A DNA stretch of 63,728 nt, the filler included, from Rhabdomonas costata (taxonomy: Eukaryota), in NCBI GenBank assembly GCA_019059605.1. It is 41 parts of 41 records of this genome, joined end to end, with 100 filler letters (N's around TTAATTAATTAA, not from the genome) between each part and the next. Parts side by side here need not be neighbours in the genome. Positions count along the whole stretch, not along the records: positions 34,248 to 35,703 come from JAHMHO010015479.1; 40 more parts are not named here. One strand, 5' to 3'. Shown here one piece after another: positions 1,558 through 61,331 of the stretch (position 1 is its first letter; every line of letters starts with the position of its first letter). The position numbers were made by a program, and so were the translations under genes. The notes below the pieces were generated by a model. It was not told the DNA's origin, searched no databases, and saw only the letters and a list, made by a program, of their open reading frames with translations.

Positions 1558-3181
1558 GGGGTGGGTGGTAAACAAGGTCAGGCTTTGGAAATAGATGGTG
1601 GGCTGCCCGCTCCCCACGGACTCCTTCACCCCATTTTCGGCCCGAAATCCCGCGGATTTCCGCTATTGGTCAGCAGATGCCTCAAAACGTAGCACAGCAC
1701 CGGGCCGGTGAAACTTCGGAGTGCGGCGAGAAGTTTTTTTTTGAAGTTGTGGCTCTTCTTCGTCACTGTAAAACTGCTAAATAACTCAACCCACAGTCAC
1801 TCTGCACCCTTGCAGCCAGCCATCGTTGTTTAGTTGTTTTTCCCTTGGCCCGACCCCCCTTCCATCTGTTTTGTTACCTCCCAATCCCGCCCCTAAAGCA
1901 TTCAAGGTGGAAGCAACATAGGCACAATTACAGGGACACCGACCTCAAAGTTCATCGTGAAGGTGCTCAAAGGTCATTTCAGTGTTACAACCGCAGCAAA
2001 ACATAAAATTCAAAGGATCCTGGCCATAGTTCAAGGTCAACCTTCAGTATTCAAAGTTCAACAAAACCAGTTCATAGTCAAGAGAAGAGCAGCTCACTGA
2101 TCCGGTCCGATACATTCTTTTTTGTGTGTGTGGAGGCGGGGTTAAACGGTTTAACAATGTTCGTTTTGACGACGTCAAAAGGTGTGTTACAGTGTTGGAC
2201 GTTTTGTATAGGGGTACCTTTCCTCGGAATTTCTGGTGCTGACTACGGTGAATTTGCCCGGGAAGGGTGGCCAGAGCGGGAGGCTGAGGCGGCAACGTTC
2301 CCTGTGGGGGGGGGGGGTCGAGGTCAAGCGCCCCGAAAGCGACACATAAACATAATTTTGAACCTTAACCTCGTGAAATCCTTTAACACCGTTCGAAACC
2401 TTTCATCTCCCCTTCCCCAATATAAGCATCGGACCCCACAGATCAATTCAGTTCCTAAGATTTCAATTTTATTCAATGTTCAAATCCAAACCTGCACATT
2501 TCATTTCTCGCTCTGCGGCTCTGCTGCGCACAAATTTCTTTCTTATTCGCCCAGCATCTATCCCGAAAGCTTCCGAAGCTCCCGGAGGTCTCTCACCTTA
2601 GCAGTGCAAGAACAACCGAAAGGGTGTGCAGAGATCCATCTTGTCCTTTCAGGGTTTCAGGGAAACCCATGTGAGGGCAATGCCGAAGCAAGGCCGGGGT
2701 CTTTTCTATGTACATTGGGCCTTCCGAAACTCTTCACCGGTACCGCAGCGCATGCACTTCCATTCAGCTTGATGACCCATTTATCACAGCGTCTTCTATT
2801 CCTTCCGCAGAAGCTCCAACAGCGTAGCAGCCGGCCGCAGCTTCAAAAACCCTGCAGGATTGCAGTGGCCATGATAAGCTGAGCAGGGCGGCAATGCTCT
2901 GTGACACAACAGGCAACGTCCACGCGCCAGATGAGCACTCCCACAGGAAGATCTGCAATTTTTGGGCGTGAAGCATCTTCAGACATCCTCGGAGGAAGGC
3001 GTTCCCAGGCCTNNNNNNNNNNNNNNNNNNNNNNNNNNNNNNNNNNNNNNNNNNNNTTAATTAATTAANNNNNNNNNNNNNNNNNNNNNNNNNNNNNNNN
3101 NNNNNNNNNNNNGTTGTTGGTGGAAAACCCAGGCTGCTTTCCCTGACAAGAGCAATTCGTCGCACATGGAGCGCAGCATAC

Positions 3182-14123: not shown

Positions 14124-15396
14124 GTTCCCATGGCGCTGCTCACCCCTCTCCGGATCGCTGTCATGATTGTCCTCTACATTGTATACTTTAGCACGTTGAG
14201 GTTGTATCTTCTAGGTGTGCGTTGGCGATGCAGGATGTGCTTCCCCCGCACTTTGTTTGGCCCTTTCTCCTGGCGCGAAGCCCTTATCTTCCAGTGCGAC
14301 GCCAGTTATGATAGGGGTGTCAGTATTAAGCCCTGGCATTGCTCAGAAAGACGAACACTCCCCCATTTTCCCACTTTCCTGTGTGTCTGTGGGAGGCCAA
14401 GATCCAAATGCCTGGCGCTGTTCGCACCCCAGAATTGAATGTCAGTCTGGCTGCAGCTTGCAACGCTATGTTGGTCACATGACATTGTCCGCTTTGCTTT
14501 ATTAATTTAGAAAATGTACCAAAGCGATCTTTTGAAACCTAATAGCGAAAAAAAAATAGAAAATGGAAATTGGACTTGAATGGCGCATCAGTTTCCCAGT
14601 TTGCTTCGGCGCTATGTTGTCTCACTAGTTTCTTGATTAAGCCAAGTTGACTGTGACTTACAGGAGTGGACATGAACAAGCCCCTTCCTGCAGACAAGTT
14701 TCCCTTCGTGCTGAAGTACACACAGGTCATGATTCGGATCTTCCTGGGGACCTTTGGGATATGGCATATCAGGTGCCCTTGCAGTCGATTTGATTCGTTT
14801 GCGTGTTGCCTGTGTAATAATGGGGGGTGGCGCCGCGGCTTTGCACATCCAAATGCAATACGATGGGGTGCGCCGCTTGGTGGATATTGTCTTCTGAAGT
14901 CGCCCCCCCCCCCGCATCCACCTTGCAGGGCCTTCGCCTGAATAAGAAAGTAGAAAAAGCGCTCTTCAGAGCTTATCTGCGCACAGGGCAGAGAGCATTG
15001 TGCGCAAACACCACTTCCTGTCACAGAAGTTCTCCTCCAGTTGTCCCAGCCTTCACTTCCTTGCTCCTGTCACAGTCATTTTTTCAGTTCCACTTCGATT
15101 CACATCCTCCACCTCACTGCAGCCTTTGCATTCGAACGCAGTGGTCAAATAAAAAAATTGGCCAAATTTGCTTTCAGTTACATTCTCCCGTTCGCCTCTT
15201 GACCGCCCGCCCCTTCCCCGTGCCGTTGCTTAGCGTGGAAGGCAGCCTGCCTCCCAGGCCCGAGATCTGCCGGTACACCCTGGTGTGCAACCACCTCAGC
15301 TATATGGACATCTTGATAATGATGACCTTACTGATGCCTGCCTTCGTGGCGAAGATCGAGTTGAGGTCCCTGCCCTCCTTCGGCTTCCTCTGCAAG
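14124..15396 (+). CDS. Lysophospholipid acyltransferase (LPCAT/LPEAT-like, PlsC family); exons 14124-14214, 14664-14772, 15234-15396
   Basis: Phase-compatible GT-AG joins give ...LTPLRIAVMIVLYIVYFSTLRLYLLG|VDMNKPLP...RIFLGTFGIWHIS|VEG...LVCNHLSYMDIL...PAFVAKIELRSLPSFG. Contains the catalytic NHxSxxD (HX4D) and FVAK motifs. Confidence 0.88.
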
Positions 15397-16439
15397 GTGC
15401 CCTTCCCCTCCTCCCCCATGCTACTTCTCACTGCCGCTAATTCTAAGGGCACTTTATCCACCAACACCCNNNNNNNNNNNNNNNNNNNNNNNNNNNNNNN
15501 NNNNNNNNNNNNNTTAATTAATTAANNNNNNNNNNNNNNNNNNNNNNNNNNNNNNNNNNNNNNNNNNNNCAGGGAAAAGACAGTAGCAATAGTCAAGTGG
15601 AATGGCCAGAAAGGTCATTTGGCCAGAAAGGAATTTTGTTGGGGGGAAAACTCGGGTGAAAGTATGTGTTGTGGTAGTATGTGTTTCCGGGCAAGGAGTG
15701 ATACTTGGACAGTGGATAAGAATCGGTTTCTGAAATTAGGAGGACCGTTGCAACCAGGCAACGTGCCTCCATTGACAGCATACCGGTAAACTATTACGTA
15801 CATCCCCAACGGACTCTTCCAGCAACGGGCCTCCATTTTTCTCAATTGCCGCCGTGCGTATCAGTCTTCAAACTTCTCTACCTCAACTTGCGGCTTTTGC
15901 TCATCGCCCCCGTCCTTCAGTAGCCGCATCTTGTGCAAGCGTTTTCTTCAATCGCAGTCCGGGTGGTGCGGCTGTACATCCTGGTCCACAAAGAAGGACC
16001 ACGGATATGTTGGAAATTGGGATCTATGTGTGGTAAATCCGAATCCACAAGTCAGAATCACAAAAATCCGGGAACAAAGAGACGGAAGAATTTCCTTTTC
16101 AGACCGAAATATCGGCACGGGTGGATTGAGAGGGCAGTAAACGAGACGAAGTACTGGGAGGAAATTCCTGATTCAACCGTCGCCACAATGGTGCCTTGTA
16201 TAACGGTCCTCCTAATGTAAGAAACCGATTCTTTCTCCACGGCCAGTGATCACACCTTGCCAGGAAACAGATAACCCACATCACATACTTTTACCCACGA
16301 TTTCCCACTAACGATATTCTCTTTTTGGCCAAATGACCTTTTTGTCCATTCCACTTGACCATTGCTTTTGTCTTTTTCCTGCACAGTAGCCGTTTTCCCC
16401 CGCGGAAATTCTGGCCACTTGACCCGACCGGATTGTTTT

Positions 16440-28021: not shown

Positions 28022-29477
28022 GTGTGGGTGTCGACGTGGGAGACACACTGGGCTCGAGCCGTGGAATGGGAGGAGGCCCCTGGGCTTGGCGACCAGTTGC
28101 TTGCCCAGCCTGGCTTCGTGGTGGAACCTAGCTCTGGTCCTGCCGCGGCCGCCCGAGAGGCGGAGGTGGTGCGAATGCAGCGGGCCAACCAGACTGTCCT
28201 GGAAGCGATGTTCTCCGCAACTCCGGCGGAGCGTGCCGGCCTGGAGCGGCAGTTTCAGCACAACAAGGCTCTTCTGTCTAGGCTGCAGAAGGCGAGGGTG
28301 GTGGACTTTTTTCGGGCTGAGGCAGGACAGACCGACATGCAGAGGCTTCGGGTTTTCCTCCTGGAGCAGGAGGTGTGCTGCACCATGACCGACTCGCAGC
28401 TGTCCGAGGAGGTTATCCCCTTGCTGCTAAACATCCTGGCGTTGCCACCGGAGCCCTTCTACTCCGTAGAAGGCAAGCTCCCCACCCCGGAGACCAGCCA
28501 CCGGTTGCTCTGCCGTGGCGTGCTGAACATTTGTGAGCTTTTGTTGGGCGACATTGCCCTGGACATCCCTGCCGTGCTGGAGGCGGACACCCGTCGCCTG
28601 GCTTCCAGTACTCGGGGAATGGCGCGCCCTGGTCGCGGGTTCGCCCCCGAGCACCACACTGTGACGTGGGAGCCCATGCTGGACTTTTTGTCGCGGCTGT
28701 ACTCGCTGCTGTATGGCTCCCTTGTTCCGGATGGCAAGACCCGCTTTCGTCACCGTGCGGTGGTAAAGTATGTGATGACCCTGAGGGCGATGGCCAAGGC
28801 CAAACAGATACATGTAGAGAACGAGGTTGTTATATTGTTCCCTCCACTTCCTATTGCCGCTTCATACGGAACATAATTTTGCAGACTCGTTGTCAGAGGT
28901 GTTATTCTTTGACTTAGGGACGTGACGACAACGTCGAACGATCACACAAGCCTCGGGATTAATAAACGCTTTCCTGCAGCTGCTTTTGCGCCCACCAGTT
29001 TCATCCATAGCATCCAGAGCCTCGACAGCCTCCGTAAATGGTGCCATTTATTACTTAATTGGACAAAGGTTGTGCGTTGTTGTCTAGTACTCGGAAACTC
29101 CCACTGAACAGCCACCGCTATTGATGCTGACTGTGAAGTCTCCGGGAGCCTGCGGTGACTTATCGTCATTCCAGGAGCGATTCAAGCGCCTGTACGCCCA
29201 GCTGGCCCACTTTGTTATCCTCCCGGGCACCGAGCTGGAGGAGTCAGCCTCCGTGGAGCTTGCCCGGAGCCTGACCAAGTCCACTCGGCGGATGCTCCGC
29301 CGCCGCTTTCCCTCCATCGTGGCCGCTGAGGAGCCCGAGGCCGCCGCGCCCTCGCACCCTCGTCCACCACCCCCCCCACCCTCCACCGCTGTGGCTGCTG
29401 CCCCGGAGGAGCTTGAGGAAGACAACCTGGAGGCACTGCTTGGAATCTTGAAGCCCCGCCTGAAGGCACCACCACAC
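28022..29477 (+). CDS. Hypothetical helical protein, exons 28022-28824 and 29174-29477 (both truncated by contig ends)
   Basis: Long GC3-rich frame; phase-0 join HVENE|ERFKRLYAQLAHF across a GT...TTCCAG intron. Confidence 0.65.
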
Positions 29478-34140: not shown

Positions 34141-34575
34141 CAACACCNNNNNNNNNNNNNNNNNNNNNNNNNNNNNNNNNNNNNNNNNNNNTTAATTAAT
34201 TAANNNNNNNNNNNNNNNNNNNNNNNNNNNNNNNNNNNNNNNNNNNNAAGTAGAATAAAGCGAACCGGAAGGGCAACTAACAAAAATGAGAGTCAACGCT
34301 ACACAATGAGAACTTACTCTCCGGAACGATTGCTTTTTATTTGACTTTTTCACCGTTGTAAAAAGACCCATTCATACCCAAAACGTACTTTCTTCTGGAA
34401 GAAGATAAAAAACCACGGCAACCCGGGCGAAATCCCGAAAGTGAAGCCACGATACATTGGCACCAGTGTGAACAGAAAAAGATAAGATACCATCACATCA
34501 GCAATCACCGGTCCCCCTCAACCGCACGATCGACAGTTCTCCGCTACGACTGATGCGCAGTCGGGGCTGCTATTC

Positions 34576-34665
34576 CCGCATCTCAAAAGGGTTTTGTTTC
34601 AGAGCTCCCTCCATACCTCGTAAGGAAGGCACTTACGGAAGGAGCCGTCATTCTCCAATGAGCGC
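34576..34665 (-). promoter_or_regulatory. Eukaryotic SECIS element (type II) in the msrB 3' UTR
   Basis: AUGAC (34651) - GGCUCCUUCCGU - AA (34634-34633) - ministem GCCUU/GAGGU - AUGGAGGGAGCU - C-UGAA (34598). Helix II has 12 bp, all Watson-Crick or GU. Confidence 0.85.
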
Positions 34666-34869
34666 AGAAAGTCAGCCCCAGTGGCGAGAGAAGTAGAGAA
34701 AAGCAAAAACTACTGGGGAGGTAGGAAAGCGGGCAGCTATCCCATAACCTCACCACACACACACACACACACACACACCTTGTAACTACTACGTCCTCAC
34801 AAACCAATCCGTTCCTTCACAACACACATTGCAGCGCAGCAGTGCCCACCAACCATCCGCCAGAGCAGC

Positions 34870-35211
34870 TTAGTACTGCTCCGGCTTCAGGTCGAGAGCA
34901 CAGCCATTGATTCAGTGTCTGATTCCCGTCGGGTTTTCCGGTGCCGGAAACACGTGCCCCAAGTGTCCGTGACACGCCGCACAGACCACTTCAAAGGCAC
35001 CCCCGCCGACATCTTTCGCCAGCACTGCCCCAGGGAGGGCGTCCTGGAAGGTGGGCCATCCCGAGCCGTCGACGTACTTCGCGTCGGAGGGGTACAGGGG
35101 GCTACCGCAGCCCTTGCAGCAGTAGGTTCCTTTGTCTTCGGTGTAGATGTACGGGTGGGTTCCAGGCATCTCGGTGCCCTCCCGACGAAGGACGAAGTAC
35201 GACTGTTTGTC
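34870..35211 (-). CDS. msrB: Methionine-R-sulfoxide reductase B, selenoprotein form (terminal exon; UGA 34912-34914 = Sec)
   Basis: GTE, CKGC and CAAC zinc pairs, GSGWPTF, HLGHVF, then RH-UGA-INGCALDLKPEQY-TAA, aligning with the catalytic RxCIN motif. TTGCAG acceptor at 35212. Confidence 0.93.
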
Positions 35212-37644
35212 CTGCAAGCAAGGAGAAGAATTGCAATACTGCCTTAAAAAGCTGATGCCTAGGGTGGGTGGGTGTTCTAAAGGTTTTGGAGGGGTGAATG
35301 TTAACGGCTGCCAGTGGTAAAAAGAAAGAATTTACTTAAGGCAGCACTAAAGGCCACCCACGCCAAATTCCCACCTCAGCAGCCTCTAAACTAAACGAAT
35401 GCTGTCTTTCTCCAAAAATGTCCCAAAAAAACGCAGCACTTTTAAAGTGCTGCTAATCCCTCAACGCCGCTCAAGTGGGTATCACACCCAACCCTATCCT
35501 CGGTATTGGAATCTTCGCTCTGGCTCAGCTAAATATTTTCACGTCCCCCCCCCCCCCGTATAACTTATCACTGTTTCCGCACTACTACTGCACTACATGT
35601 TCGGAAGCTGTCGAGCGTTAACTTTTCCTAGAAACACTATGGCAACTCGTGAGAAAGTACAAACGTACATACACGTGTACGCACGGGTAGAATAACCACA
35701 ACCNNNNNNNNNNNNNNNNNNNNNNNNNNNNNNNNNNNNNNNNNNNNTTAATTAATTAANNNNNNNNNNNNNNNNNNNNNNNNNNNNNNNNNNNNNNNNN
35801 NNNGTGTGGGGTGGTCGCAGAGCTGCTTGCCGTGCACGAGGACCGCTTTTGTGCGGACCTCAAAGTCGCCCAGGTGTGTGTGTGTGTGTGCATATGCTGG
35901 GAGTCTTCCCCAGAAAAAAGTCATCTTCTCCAAGTGCACAAAGTGTGTGCATATGCTGCCTTTGTTTCTGTTTCCGGTGCCTTTGGACCATCCACAATGC
36001 TTGTCCGAGCAGTCTCGTTCTGTGTAGCAATATTACACGAGACTTATCCGCAGCGCATGATGGCTCATTTTCCTGTACACCGAGATCAAAGAAGGGATGA
36101 CGGTGGCGGTGCGGGGTGCGGGATGCTCAGGGCACACAGCGGGGACGTCTGCTCGCGAATGTGGCCTACGAGGACTTTTGTAAGCTTGCCGAAATCGAGC
36201 CCAGCTAAAGCACTGTGTCATCCACGCAGCACTGCCGCTTTGCTCTGCCCTGGCAGCCGCAGCTATGCTAAAAACCACTTCCCTACCTTATTTTCTCCAC
36301 TGACACGGGTAAGGGAGAAGCACCCCTGAATGGGGGAGGGCTCTGTTCAGAGCAGACCGTGTACAGTTGTGGCCAGCGCTTTGGGGCCGCTTTGCGGGCT
36401 TCTGTCACTGATCTCAACATCGCATCTGTTGCTGTTGGTGCTCAGAAAGTGTTTCCACTTTGCACCCCCGGTAAAAGAGGAGAACGAGAAGGGTCAGTGA
36501 ATGTGGAACTGGCTAGAATTTGGTGTTGCGTTGAGTGTGGCAGTGTTCCGAGTTTTGCAACCGTTCAGTAGGTTCCATTCGCTTCTGGTCGTGTGTGTGT
36601 GTGTGTGTGTCTGCGTGAGGGATCAACTGGAGTGACTTTCTTTGCACTGTTGGGCATATCATGCAATGGTCGCGGGGGTGCGATGGTAACCACAGTATCA
36701 CTGGCGATTTTGATGACTCTTGGTAGTCCACAAATAGGAAATTATGGGACGACGTTGAAACCCACCACATCTCACCTAAGATCTGTAAGATCTGGGGCCG
36801 CTCTGCTGAGCTCCGCGGCCCATTACGAACGCCTTTGGCTTTAAAATATAATTGTGTCTTACTTGGTATGTTTAGGACTCACAGTACAAATGGTACAAAT
36901 GGTGACAATTGCACTCGGGGGGAGGGGCGGTGAGGCGGTAAACGTTTATCGCCGTCGAACGTTTGCCTTTGCTGGTGGACATATCATTGGGACAGAAAAT
37001 CTCCATTTTCTGTTGAAGTTACTTTCTGAGCTTTAGGTGAGAATGTCAGCGCCCCCTGGATGGCGATTTCTCACAATGTTTTAAAAAAAATCTGGACCGT
37101 TTAAAGGTGTTGTACGTTTCACTTCACGAAACGCCTAAAACGTCTTACACTGCTACTTCCCCCTCCCCAAAAAATGTCATTGTCTCCAAATGGAATCCTG
37201 GCCGCCCGAAGCAAGATAACCTCCGCTTCCTCCACCCCCAAACCAAACACACCCACCACNNNNNNNNNNNNNNNNNNNNNNNNNNNNNNNNNNNNNNNNN
37301 NNNTTAATTAATTAANNNNNNNNNNNNNNNNNNNNNNNNNNNNNNNNNNNNNNNNNNNNTGTGGGGGGTTGGGTGTCTTTGTACGAAAGGGTCTTATGGT
37401 GTGCGTGCTTGCTGTGTGCTTACTGAACAATGAAAGTTTGAGGATTTGTGTCTCTAAATTAGGATGCCTTGCGAAGGCGCCTGCAGCCAGGGTCGCTGCC
37501 CTGTTCAAAACGGAGCGTAAAGCACCTATTCAGCGGAAATGACAGCTTCAAGAGAGCCTTCGGCTCACGTGGGCTGCTGTCGCGGGGTGCTGGGTTGCTG
37601 ACAATTACACGATAAGATAAAAAAATATGGTTTCCTCTTGAAAA

Positions 37645-37765
37645 GTTGAACTTGCTTCACACTGTGCGCGCGCTTTTCTTTGTGAAATCCAATGAATGGA
37701 GGCGTTGAACTTGCTTCACACTGTGCGCGCGCTTTTCTTTGTGAAATCCAATGAATGGAGGCGTT
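37645..37765 (+). repeat. Perfect 59-bp tandem duplication
   Basis: 37645-37703 equals 37704-37762. Confidence 0.95.
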
Positions 37766-39730: not shown

Positions 39731-40645
39731 GGCTCAAGCTGTCCACACAGACGCACCCTACAGCACGCAAGTGATGACTCCAAACACTCCACGTACAATC
39801 ACTAACTCGCTCACTCGCTCGCTCTGCAAAGCACTACCCTGTTTGCTGTTCCTACCGGTTCAAAAAGCCGCAACGGAAAAACAACAACAGCTGCAAACAC
39901 GACGGATGAGAAGCTCCTGGAGTGCCACCAGCACAAAGTATGACAAAACGTGGGATTGTTGCAAATCTGGATGTTGCAGATCAGATGCATCTTTTTCGTA
40001 AGAGGCGCCTCGGAAGCAGCGCCAAAAGTACTCATCGTTGCATCGTCTGTATTGGACCTGCGGAAGCGTGATGGACAAGCCCTGAAGAACTAACGAGCCC
40101 GAACCATCAGCTCAACAAAGTAACCCTCGCAATGAGGAAGGCTTTGCAAGCCATCCTGTCGTTTAGGAGACGTCAGATGGGTAGGGATGGTATGCGTGTT
40201 GCTTATGTCAGTGACGGCCCCACCACACCACTTCGGGCCAAGGCTTGATTTCGCGAAGGAGGAACACACTCTCAAAGGTCCATCAAAACAGGGGGACTTC
40301 TCGTGGGGAAAAGAAGTCCCGCAAAAGCGCGCGCAAAGCCCTGCGCAGGGGTGACGCGCAAAAAAAACCCCNNNNNNNNNNNNNNNNNNNNNNNNNNNNN
40401 NNNNNNNNNNNNNNNTTAATTAATTAANNNNNNNNNNNNNNNNNNNNNNNNNNNNNNNNNNNNNNNNNNNNGTGGGGTGGGATGAGTATGTGTTTGGGGA
40501 AGGCATGCTTTAGATGTTTAAGGGCGCTAAACGTTTTGGGAATTTGTCGATCGATTGGAAAATAATGATTTTAGGAGCGAAGGCCAGAGCGGGCAGAGAA
40601 ATGATAAGGGAGGACCCTCACCTTATTCCTGCTCACACTTTGGTT

Positions 40646-40745
40646 GAGTTGAGTTGAGTTGAGTTGAGTTGAGTTGAGTTGAGTTGAGTTGAGTTGAGTT
40701 GAGTTGAGTTGAGTTGAGTTGAGTTGAGTTGAGTTGAGTTGAGTT
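40646..40745 (+). repeat. (GAGTT)20 microsatellite
   Basis: Direct count. Confidence 0.97.
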
Positions 40746-48146: not shown

Positions 48147-48450
48147 NNNNNNNNNNNNNNNNNNNNNNNNNNNNNNNNNNNNNNNNNNNNTTAATTAATT
48201 AANNNNNNNNNNNNNNNNNNNNNNNNNNNNNNNNNNNNNNNNNNNNTTTCAGTGGCGAAGAAACTTAGAAAAGGACTCTGACCCTTTCATTTCGCTACTG
48301 TTGTGCATCAAGGGTGGTTGTTTTCAGTGACTTCCTCACCCTTTTCTCTGTGCCGTACAAGTGAAGGTATGCCAAATAAATGATCGCGCTGAACCAGTGT
48401 CCACAGCGCTCCTGCCACGTGGTGCCTCGTGGTGCCCCTGTTGTCCTCAG

Positions 48451-48663
48451 GACGCCTTCGAGGCCTACGGCAAGGTGGTGAACATCCAGCTGATCAAGAA
48501 CAGCCTGGACCGTGCCCCGTACGCCTTCGTGGAGTTCGCGAACCTGGACGACGCCGTGGAGGCCAAGGCAAGCATGCACGAAACGAAGTTCATGGGGCAG
48601 ACCATCCGCACCGACTTCGCGTACTCCCGGGGCAGCGGGGGTGGCAGCAGGCCTCCGGGATAG
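48451..48663 (+). CDS. RRM RNA-binding protein, terminal exon
   Basis: CAG|DAFEAYGKVVNIQL...PYAFVEF (RNP1)...GQTIRTDFA, Gly-rich tail, TAG stop. Confidence 0.88.
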   Translation, partial: DAFEAYGKVVNIQLIKNSLDRAPYAFVEFANLDDAVEAKASMHETKFMGQTIRTDFAYSRGSGGGSRPPG

Positions 48664-52273: not shown

Positions 52274-52727
52274 ATGATTGATCACTTCACTGTGCTCCAC
52301 AAAGGGGGCAAGGTTCTGTGGCAGAAGAGCCTCGTGAAGATCACTGGGAACCCGATCAACCAGCTGATCAAGACCGTGCTCCTGGAGGACCGCGGCGGGG
52401 ACTCCACCTTCACCCATGATAGCTATCGCCTCCAGTGGCTGCTGGCCAACGAGTTCGAGCTGGTCTTCGTGGTGGTGTACCAGAAAATCATCCAGCTGCT
52501 GTATGCCGAGCAGCTCCTCAGCCAAGTCAAGGACGCCTTCTGCACGATGTTTCAAGCCGAGCTCAGCCAGACCACCCTGCTGTTCGCGAAGTTTGAGGGC
52601 TTCGACGCGGCCTTCACGCGCATTCTGGCAGGTCTGGAGGCCAGCTTGGGGGGAGCGGGGCCGCCTGCTCGGAGAACCAGCCCACCTCCGGGCTTGCCCT
52701 CCGGGGAACCTGCTCCGCCCGCAAAAG
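52274..52727 (+). CDS. SRPRA: Signal recognition particle receptor alpha, first exon (SRX/longin domain)
   Basis: MIDHFTVLHKGGKVLW...GNPINQLIKTVLLEDR...YRLQWLLANEFELVFVVVYQKIIQLLY; GTGAG donor. Confidence 0.92.
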
Positions 52728-54303
52728 GTGAGCGATTGTCCTTATCTGTGCCGCATCAGGAAGCTTGTTTGCTCGACAGCTTCGCTCGGGTTTGCAGTGG
52801 AGCAGTAAAGAACNNNNNNNNNNNNNNNNNNNNNNNNNNNNNNNNNNNNNNNNNNNNTTAATTAATTAANNNNNNNNNNNNNNNNNNNNNNNNNNNNNNN
52901 NNNNNNNNNNNNNGGGGTTGGGTTCACCGCCCGTACCGGAGGGACCGCTGGGACGAACAGGCCCTTGCCTGGACTTGTCAGTTCCGTTGGGGTGGGGACG
53001 GTACTAAGCCGGCGGGTCGCCACGGCGAGCATCTGCTCCACAAAACTCTGGCGCACCCCCCGCCCGCCACAGCCCAGCGGGTACTCCGAGGCGTACTGCT
53101 GCAGCGAGGTACGTGCGGCCTGAAGCTGGCCTGAGAGAGAGTAAGTGAGGGTGAAAGGGTGGGTGAACTCTGAGCTGAGCAGCTGACCGATCTCGTGCCT
53201 TACTGCGGTGACTGGCGTTTCGACCCCCGGGGGAGTGTCTGGGTCATCATTCGCAGGGCACCATCTCCGGCTGTCAACTCGGAGAATGGGTCGGGCTCTG
53301 GATGTGCGAGGTGCGGGCTGACGGGATGATGGATGCACTGGGGCTACGGTTGAGGTGGGCGGATATGAAACAGACGATGAGAGAGACAGAGGCGTTGTGG
53401 CCAACGCCAAGGACACCGAAGCTGCGCAAACCAGCAGATTGCAAATTAATCTCAGAATGTGGCGACTGAGCCATAGTTTTTTGTGTTAGACACGGCCCAT
53501 CAACCACTCCCGTCCCAGGGATGTCCTGGGATGGGGCGGGGGCCTAGTCGGGGCATAAGTCCCTCCCCCTTAAAGCAAGAGTGTGGCTGATCAACCCAGT
53601 TTGTTGGTGAGCAAGATAGCCCCTGGCTCAGCTATGAATCACGGAAACATCGCTGAAAATCCGGCTAAATCATTTTTGAACCACACACCTCAAACGAGAA
53701 GATAAAAGAACGTTTCCAGAAAACTTGACACGTGTTTACTCCTGCACTGCCCGCCCAGCTATTTTACAATTGACACCGAGCTTTTTCCTTCATGAGACGA
53801 AGCGCGCAGCAGGGGCGCGTTTAGAAACCCTTAGCCACGCGAAACAACAGGGCCGGTGTATGTGTGTGCTCTGCCGCGATCAGGTGTGAGCTAAAAAAAT
53901 CAATGGGCTAGCGTTATTGCGTTCAGCGCATAGCACGCTGGCTGTTGCCTGACTGGCTGTTGGTGACCCGCTGTGGAATGAAGGACACACGCGCTGTTGA
54001 TCACATGGTTGATCGAGAAAGGTACCCTCAGACCGAACGGGTTCCGGCTACCTCCACCGCAGTGCGTTTCACGTATGATAAGCTCAGTTCTGCCTTTCGG
54101 GTCCCGGGCCTTTGTCGCACAGCTCTTTTCCAGCGACTACCCGCACTGCTGCTGCATTGCTGCTCTGGTCTTTGACGTGTGCGTGAGTGAGCCGTGGAAG
54201 GTATTGTTGATATCACGTGTGTGCTCAACAGTTGCCTGCGAAAAAGTGTGCATCCCTTTGGAGAGTGGACGCGGGCTAGGTCGGTCCGAGGGTTACCGTT
54301 TGG

Positions 54304-60716: not shown

Positions 60717-61331
60717 TTGTGTGTCGGCGCCGAAGAGGAGACTCACTCCCTTACTGCGTACACTATTGCTGTGGTGAGCCACAAGTTCTTCGACGGCTTT
60801 GTCGTTGGGGTGTCAATGTACTTGGGAAAACCACCTTTGCATCACATCGCTGGCGGTCTCGTCTTCTCCGCAGCTATGACTCCAATAGGTAAGATTTTTG
60901 TTGGGAGTTGGCACAGCGAATATCAACTTAGTGTTTTGCCTTCTACCAGTTCAGTTTCATGGACTCAGAATAGTCTTTTCTTTCCTTTTCTGCGACAACG
61001 CCATCCTCTACCACGCCTCATAAACAATTCTGTCATTCCACCCGCTGGCTATTGTCGTGTCACAGGCATTGGAATTGGCTGGGGCGCAACAGCGGCGACG
61101 GAAGGTGCGGCCCTGTACCTGGTCCAGGCCTTGATCTTGAGCATCAGTTTCGGGACGTTCTTGTTCATAGCGCTAGTCGAGCTGATTCCGATGGGTTTCG
61201 GCGATGGGAAGTGGCGGAATGTGAAATCCATGGCTGCCATCCTCGGGTTTGGTGTGATGGCGCTCGTGAACTACCTCCACAGCCAGCAGCACTCTCACGG
61301 TGGTTCTGACGGTCACGCCCACGTCCACTGA
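60717..61331 (+). CDS. ZIP (SLC39) Zn/Fe transporter, 3' part; intron 60889-61065
   Basis: AVVSHKFFDGFVVG, FSAAMTPIG|IGIG, SFGTFLFIALVELIP and a His-rich C-terminal tail. Confidence 0.9.
   Translation: MCVGAEEETHSLTAYTIAVVSHKFFDGFVVGVSMYLGKPPLHHIAGGLVFSAAMTPIGKIFVGSWHSEYQLSVLPSTSSVSWTQNSLFFPFLRQRHPLPRLINNSVIPPAGYCRVTGIGIGWGATAATEGAALYLVQALILSISFGTFLFIALVELIPMGFGDGKWRNVKSMAAILGFGVMALVNYLHSQQHSHGGSDGHAHVH

Follow-up and report, generated by a model that had tools for sequence, protein, structure and literature searches.

In a contig of Rhabdomonas costata, the reading frame of a gene of the MsrB family contains a TGA codon at the position of the catalytic residue. Does this codon specify selenocysteine (Sec), or has the gene been damaged, read in another genetic code, or truncated? 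A previous examination of the locus, made from the sequence alone (the sequence-only reading), had pointed to a probably unannotated selenoprotein. We put at about 0.8 the probability that the gene encodes a Sec-containing MsrB decoded by means of a type 2 SECIS element, that it is unannotated, and that the contig carries a fragment of it.

The DNA that was analyzed as a whole, referred to below as the window, spans 63,728 bases and consists of 41 pieces of 1451-1480 bp each (mostly 1455-1457 bp) separated by N44-TTAATTAATTAA-N44 linkers. In this respect the framing of the sequence-only reading does not hold. The pieces are separate contigs, and the genes that had been designated COG6 and ZIP are not located beside MsrB. 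Since the neighboring genes belong to other contigs of the assembly, there is no synteny to be exploited and gene order across the linkers is meaningless. Genomic context was accordingly dropped as evidence for MsrB, the adjoining genes being located on unrelated contigs. The MsrB gene and the hairpin described below are both wholly contained in a single piece (positions 34248-35703). Most of the pieces have a G/T-rich start and a C/A-rich end, and these ends look like remnants of (degenerate) amplification primers, as would be found in amplified DNA.

Table 1. Positions of the MsrB coding sequence, of the SECIS-like hairpin, and of other features of the window.
Feature	Position	Strand	Evidence or remark
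SelR/MsrB last coding exon, 113 codons and TAA	34870..35211	-	Pfam PF01641
Standard-code ORF, ending in ...GIRH and TGA	35169..34912	-	
TGA in frame, at the position of the catalytic Cys/Sec (R-H-U-I-N)	34912..34914	-	Invariant column C140
TAA, stop codon of the read-through frame	34870..34872	-	
Polypyrimidine tract and AG, putative 3' splice site	35212..35230	-	Read from sequence
First in-frame ATG	35167..35169	-	Alternative start if the upstream AG is a trans-splice acceptor
(GT/CA)12.5 microsatellite between stop codon and SECIS-like hairpin, presumed 3' UTR	34754..34778	Not applicable	
Complete SECIS-like hairpin	34563..34679	-	RNA folding and descriptor scans
Helix 1, 20 pairs, closing the internal loop	34679-34659 with 34585-34563	-	Fold
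Core AUGA / UGAA	34651-34648 / 34601-34598	-	Fold, sequence
Helix 2, 12 pairs (Watson-Crick or GU), U34603 bulged	34646-34636 with 34613-34602	-	
Unpaired U-AAG bulge	34635-34632 (AAG 34634-34632)	-	MFE and centroid structures
Ministem, 6 bp	34631-34626 with 34619-34614	-	
Apical loop, 6 nt	34625-34620	-	
Linkers	1458-1557, 3013-3112, then onward through the window		Joints between pieces
Acyltransferase fragment	14821-15468	+	E value 3.2e-5
RRM_1 exon	48331-48660	+	E value 7.1e-12
SRP receptor alpha N-terminus, beginning at native Met	52274-52813	+	Pfam, E value 2.1e-34
ZIP metal transporter, C-terminal part, TGA end	60717-61331	+	Pfam Zip, E value 5.3e-12

The reading frame that opens at position 35331 of the minus strand carries a SelR domain. 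With the TGA read through, PF01641 was matched with an E value of 1.4e-31 and a score of 109.3 bits, for a cut-off of 24.9, and the match, which started at residue 3, covered positions 3-116 of the 116 positions of the profile. Thirteen further codons (INGCALDLKPEQY) separate the TGA from the TAA, and the corresponding residues agree with the family consensus C-I-N-S/G-C-A-L-D-L-K. In a first alignment, comprising 10 of the 26 homologues found, the TGA coincided in all ten cases with the invariant column of the catalytic Cys (R-x-C-I-N). The sequence-only reading had described an ORF ending in RH and TGA, with a frame running on to TAA in agreement with RxCIN, and this description was reproduced. 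The two CxxC pairs predicted to hold the structural zinc, CKGC and CAAC, are both present, in columns that were invariant in both of our alignments. The usual position of the resolving Cys (xGCGWP) is occupied by Ser (DGSGWP), as had been recognized from the motif GSGWP, and by Cys in P0001, the closest named-Cys relative. According to the legend of a published figure, this replacement occurs in many MsrBs (PMC1278935, Figure 1). Apart from the TGA, the SelR domain is devoid of defects.

Insertion of Sec at UGA would depend on a SECIS located within the 3' untranslated region. An AUGA motif was found 218 nt past the TAA and 260 nt past the TGA, on the same strand as MsrB, within a segment that folds into a long hairpin (Table 1). 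Folding of positions 34682-34563 gave a minimum free energy (MFE) of -50 kcal/mol and a z score of -4.39, and none of 200 dinucleotide shuffles was as stable. The two A residues of the AAG bulge had probabilities of being unpaired of 0.88 and 0.998, and an alternative hairpin in which both are paired was 6.2 kcal/mol worse. The SECIS core is described as a 5' UGAN and a 3' KGAW that form tandem G.A pairs (PMC3753652), and the core formed here by A-UGAC (34651-34647) and UGAA conforms to this rule. Human SECIS elements are described as having a helix 2 of 14-15 pairs, the presence of AAA/G in the bulge defining type 2 (PMC2761289). In the R. costata hairpin, the 12 pairs and the G.A, A.G, and C.U pairs of the core amount to 14-15 pairs before the AAG, in agreement with the length described for human elements, and the AAG is located in a bulge, as in type 2. 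The succession of AUGA, a 12-bp helix, AA, a ministem, and GA that had been placed about 220 nt downstream in the sequence-only reading was therefore recovered, at nearly the same distance.

The specificity of this structure was evaluated with three descriptors. In its 5' part, the strict descriptor comprised ATGAN followed by 10-13 pairs with at most one bulge and at most one mismatch. In its apical and 3' part, it comprised AA at most 1 nt from the end of the helix, an apex of 8-30 nt, and KGAW. The candidate was the sole match to this descriptor on both strands of the 63.7-kb window, for a chance level of 0.13 matches on average per 60-kb random first-order sequence (n = 60). The medium descriptor gave three matches versus 1.43 expected. 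The loose descriptor gave 77 distinct cores versus 80 expected and is thus without discriminating power; the candidate had the best score among its 92 matches. With these descriptors, which were written post hoc, the candidate having already been seen, the chance of encountering such an element in about 620 nt of 3' sequence ranges from about 7e-4 (strict) to 7e-3 (medium). Rfam contains SECIS models, the seeds of which are largely metazoan. No match to the Rfam 15 SECIS families was obtained at E values of up to 10, whether 1 kb or just the 91-nt hairpin was scanned, and the E-value scans returned chance-level matches to lncRNAs and riboswitches instead. At the gathering threshold, a scan of the whole window gave no match. 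As modeled, the hairpin carries every canonical feature of eukaryotic SECIS elements and is very probably a SECIS of type 2.

Relatives of the protein were sought with HMMER among 1.84 billion representatives. The scan gave 8581 matches at an E value of at most 0.001, of which 150 were listed. The catalytic column contained Cys in eight of the 11 proteins that were taken from the 150, a biased choice made on the basis of highest identity or of alignments ending early. The closest of the matches listed, P0038 (67% in the scan and 64% over 89 aa in the alignment), originates, according to its source (EukProt CAMPEP_0174381546, MMETSP0811, taxid 73025), from the transcriptome of the euglenid Eutreptiella gymnastica. 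The similarity of P0038 to MsrB ends at ...GHLGHMFPD and is followed by an unrelated tail. When this tail was back-translated and read with an offset of two bases, it proved compatible with the MsrB gene at 13 of 14 positions in a row. In this back-translation, as distinct from the DNA itself, the catalytic codon is limited to NGA (TGA, CGA, AGA, or GGA), which leaves no place for a Cys codon. Most simply, the Eutreptiella transcript would also contain TGA, around which the peptide predictor would have jumped frame. P0038 is thus probably a mis-predicted Sec-MsrB. The pipeline of the MMETSP project is said to tolerate frame shifts. Another MsrB homologue, P0149, which has a lipoprotein-like signal peptide, ends in ...RH, with the residue that precedes the catalytic column. 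P0149 could be a further Sec-MsrB, perhaps from a bacterium, or its end could just be that of a contig. A further protein, P0090, stops earlier than P0149.

The contig lacks the 5' portion of the gene. Homology to MsrB starts directly after the polypyrimidine tract and AG listed in Table 1. Ahead of the SelR domain the frame contains no ATG, and the contig thus has no complete ORF with a start codon. The 489 nt upstream, up to the contig end, contain only two ATGs, neither of which opens an MsrB-like exon. All seven of the homologues aligned in this region extend at least 20 aa further in the N-terminal direction and display an EW..L motif. Initiation at the first in-frame ATG (35169) would cost 14 conserved residues of the domain, and the residues specified by the 14 codons preceding this ATG (DKQSYFVLRREGTE) can be aligned with those of P0038, the euglenid homologue. 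An intron was also identified on the contig encoding the ZIP transporter. It is of the conventional GT-AG type (GTAAG...CAG), has a length of about 176 nt (about 60890-61065), and is open in frame, so that the ZIP ORF is inflated. The absence of an upstream ATG or exon, the greater length of the homologues, the conservation of the codons preceding the ATG, and the intron of the ZIP contig all point to 35212/35211 as a likely cis-splice acceptor, with exon 1 (some 20 codons or more, among them the ATG) lying off the contig. In descriptions of euglenid genomes, introns are abundant and include conventional GT/AG introns (PMC8219788). A run of 13 G residues (35545-35557) lies within the presumed intron, upstream of the MsrB exon.

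The rest of the window was examined for indications of the lineage. The Pfam scan covered 147 of the 323 ORFs of the window that reach 75 aa or more and identified SelR, SRP-alpha_N, Zip, Acyltransferase, and RRM_1 families, in addition to a sub-threshold FNIP match. Most of the long open frames of the window had no Pfam match. No domain of the Sec machinery was detected in the 147 ORFs scanned, a result that says little for 41 random contigs of about 1.4 kb, and ARAGORN found no tRNA in the window, hence no tRNA-Sec. The window also contains a pentanucleotide array in which GTTGA is perfectly repeated 20.6 times (40643-40745), encoding an (LNSTQ)n repeat that terminates an open frame of 159 codons on the minus strand, and a perfect tandem duplication of 59 bp in 2.1 copies (37645-37765). 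The best matches of the SRP-receptor ORF were eukaryotic transcriptome proteins (55-57%), followed by oomycete proteins (47%). None of the eight matches of this fragment was labeled as trypanosomatid, five of the eight being devoid of an organism name, and the ESM Atlas returned the family only. A search of the window for the conserved portion of the spliced leader of kinetoplastids, with up to three mismatches allowed, gave no match.

The intron evidence, P0038, and the absence of the spliced-leader motif indicate that the organism is best described as a euglenid-like, intron-bearing protist and not as a trypanosomatid. The sequence-only reading had set the gene against the selenoproteins of trypanosomatids, a framing that found no support since the spliced-leader motif is absent from the window, a GT-AG intron is present, and the closest MsrB among the matches listed comes, according to its source, from a euglenid. 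As the organism was not shown to be a trypanosomatid, the comparison with trypanosomatid selenoproteins is beside the point, and the novelty of the finding has to be restated for euglenids.

Three other explanations of the TGA codon were considered. A change of the genetic code, UGA being read as Trp or Cys in the nucleus with no Sec machinery involved, has a precedent in Euglenozoa, where reassignment of UGA is described for Blastocrithidia (PMC12153298). A single TGA-terminated ORF of a recognizable family was available to check this explanation, which is thereby left some room. This ORF, encoding ZIP, nevertheless stops at TGA 20 codons beyond the end of the Pfam domain. Furthermore, the SRP-alpha_N (195 codons), SelR, and Zip ORFs contain no other in-frame TGA, and reassignment would leave the SECIS-shaped hairpin unexplained. 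A sense UGA is therefore hardly credible, and the UGA codon of MsrB most probably reflects Sec recoding rather than a code change, as had been concluded in the sequence-only reading from the use of TGA as an ordinary stop in COG6 and ZIP. The premise concerning ZIP was verified, and that concerning COG6 was not, since no COG6 domain was detected among the 147 of 323 ORFs scanned with Pfam. The stop codon of the long ORF located at 28022-28876 is TAA. The use of UGA as a stop elsewhere in the window is itself an argument for the converse proposal that UGA also terminates translation in MsrB, yielding a truncated protein lacking the catalytic residue, or a degraded mRNA, and in either case no reductase function. 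We consider this proposal very unlikely. The 13 codons after the UGA are still in frame with the family consensus preserved, the Pfam match extends to the last position of the profile, and a SECIS-like element is found further downstream.

The remaining explanation is that a TGC or TGT codon was converted to TGA by a recent mutation in a pseudogene, or by an amplification or assembly error, the hairpin being coincidental. A single substitution would turn either Cys codon into TGA. The gene is known from a sole contig, which resembles amplified DNA and lacks the N-terminal exon, and the hairpin had no SECIS match in Rfam. The active site also has the residues reported for Cys-type MsrBs (PMC1278935, section 6). 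Against this, coincidence would have to account not only for the core of the hairpin, at the chance level estimated above, but also for helix 1 and for an exceptional stability, and the remainder of the domain is undamaged. In addition, the closest relative, P0038, which is RNA-derived and comes from an independent organism, cannot encode Cys at this position, and P0149 also stops exactly before the catalytic column. We consider an error or a pseudogene to be unlikely. The domain, the position of the UGA, the SECIS-like hairpin, and P0038 together support the earlier suggestion of an unannotated selenoprotein, which is most probably correct.

For a Sec-containing MsrB, a pathway for synthesis and catalysis can be proposed. 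SBP2 would bind the kink-turn of the SECIS in the mRNA and recruit eEFSec with Sec-tRNA(Sec). The ribosome would then insert Sec at the UGA (34914-34912) and terminate at the TAA. The N-terminal residues, numbering about 20 or more, would be encoded by the upstream exon located off the contig. In the reaction, the selenolate would attack methionine-R-sulfoxide to form a selenenic acid. Since the canonical resolving Cys is replaced by Ser, this intermediate would be resolved by another thiol. The N-terminus of P0038 is devoid of Cys, and the Cys located four residues after Sec is a candidate for this role because it is the sole non-zinc Cys compatible with both the MsrB protein and the euglenid homologue. 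Following resolution, the enzyme would be reduced by thioredoxin or by a euglenozoan thiol system.

Sec-containing MsrBs are already known in vertebrates and in some algae, and no new mechanism is involved here. A survey of eukaryotic algae counts MSRB among 42 selenoprotein families and records a homologue, with Cys or of another kind, in nearly 90% of the algal genomes (PMC7539508). By the description given in that survey, the R. costata protein is of a known kind, a Sec-MsrB from a protist. The string 'Euglen' does not occur in the main text of the survey (PMC7539508), and no description of euglenid selenoproteins was found in the literature searched. In kinetoplastids, which belong to the same phylum, Euglenozoa, and also rely on eukaryotic SECIS-based decoding, the selenoproteins described are SelK, SelT, and SelTryp (PMC1557815, PMC12153298). 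UGA-to-SECIS distances of about 200 bp are reported to occur in Trypanosoma (PMC1557815). The kinetoplastid selenoproteins belong to other protein families, and their genes are described as lacking introns (PMC1557815), in contrast to the apparent intron of the R. costata gene. If real, the Sec-MsrB would extend the euglenozoan selenoproteome past these three proteins, and the public euglenid peptide P0038 would be mis-predicted around the UGA.

Among Sec forms, the one that has been studied is vertebrate MsrB1 (PMC1278935). The R. costata protein shares with it the MsrB fold, a probable Sec at the catalytic position, a putative 3' SECIS with a bulged AAR, and the absence of the resolving Cys of the xGCGWP motif. 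The resolving Cys of MsrB1 is Cys4, the counterpart of which would fall in the missing exon 1. However, similarity to the Sec-type MsrB1 sequences of the PDB (E values of 2e-7 to 3e-6) is much lower than to mouse MsrB2, the closest PDB sequence (E value of 1.3e-23). At the active site, vertebrate MsrB1 is described as having Gly77, Glu81, and Phe97 in place of the His, Val/Ile, and Asn of the Cys-type enzymes (PMC1278935, section 6). The protein described here keeps the His, Val, and Asn of the Cys type (H-L-G-H-V-F and U-I-N) and was on this account not classified as MsrB1-type. The comparison suggests that an independent change from Cys to Sec, separate from that of vertebrate MsrB1, is likely to have occurred.

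The best sequence matches were Cys-type enzymes, namely MsrB2, MsrB3, and bacterial MsrB, with 43-53% identity to the Cys forms of bacteria and eukaryotes. These proteins and the R. costata MsrB have in common the two zinc CxxC pairs as well as the motifs GHLGHVF and R-x-C-I-N. The R. costata gene differs by a UGA in place of the Cys codon and by the SECIS-like hairpin downstream. A broader proposal, which we put forward as doubtful, is that euglenids carry a conserved Sec-MsrB, represented by R. costata and E. gymnastica, whose origin would be independent of that of MsrB1 and whose active site would be an unmodified one of the Cys type (MsrB2/3-like). If so, another mode of resolution of the selenenic acid would be needed, for example by the Cys at U+4 or by a thiol specific to Euglenozoa. 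The selenoproteome of free-living Euglenozoa would then be larger than the three kinetoplastid proteins and masked by mis-prediction in public proteomes. Kim and Gladyshev reportedly found that Sec in a Cys-type MsrB requires the resolving Cys for recycling by thioredoxin, engineered Sec-MsrB2/3 not being recycled. What is notable at this locus is thus very probably a Sec-MsrB built on the active-site background of a Cys-type enzyme in a euglenid-like protist. If real, this protein would be the natural counterpart of the engineered Sec-MsrB2/3 and would provide a natural test of the result of Kim and Gladyshev.
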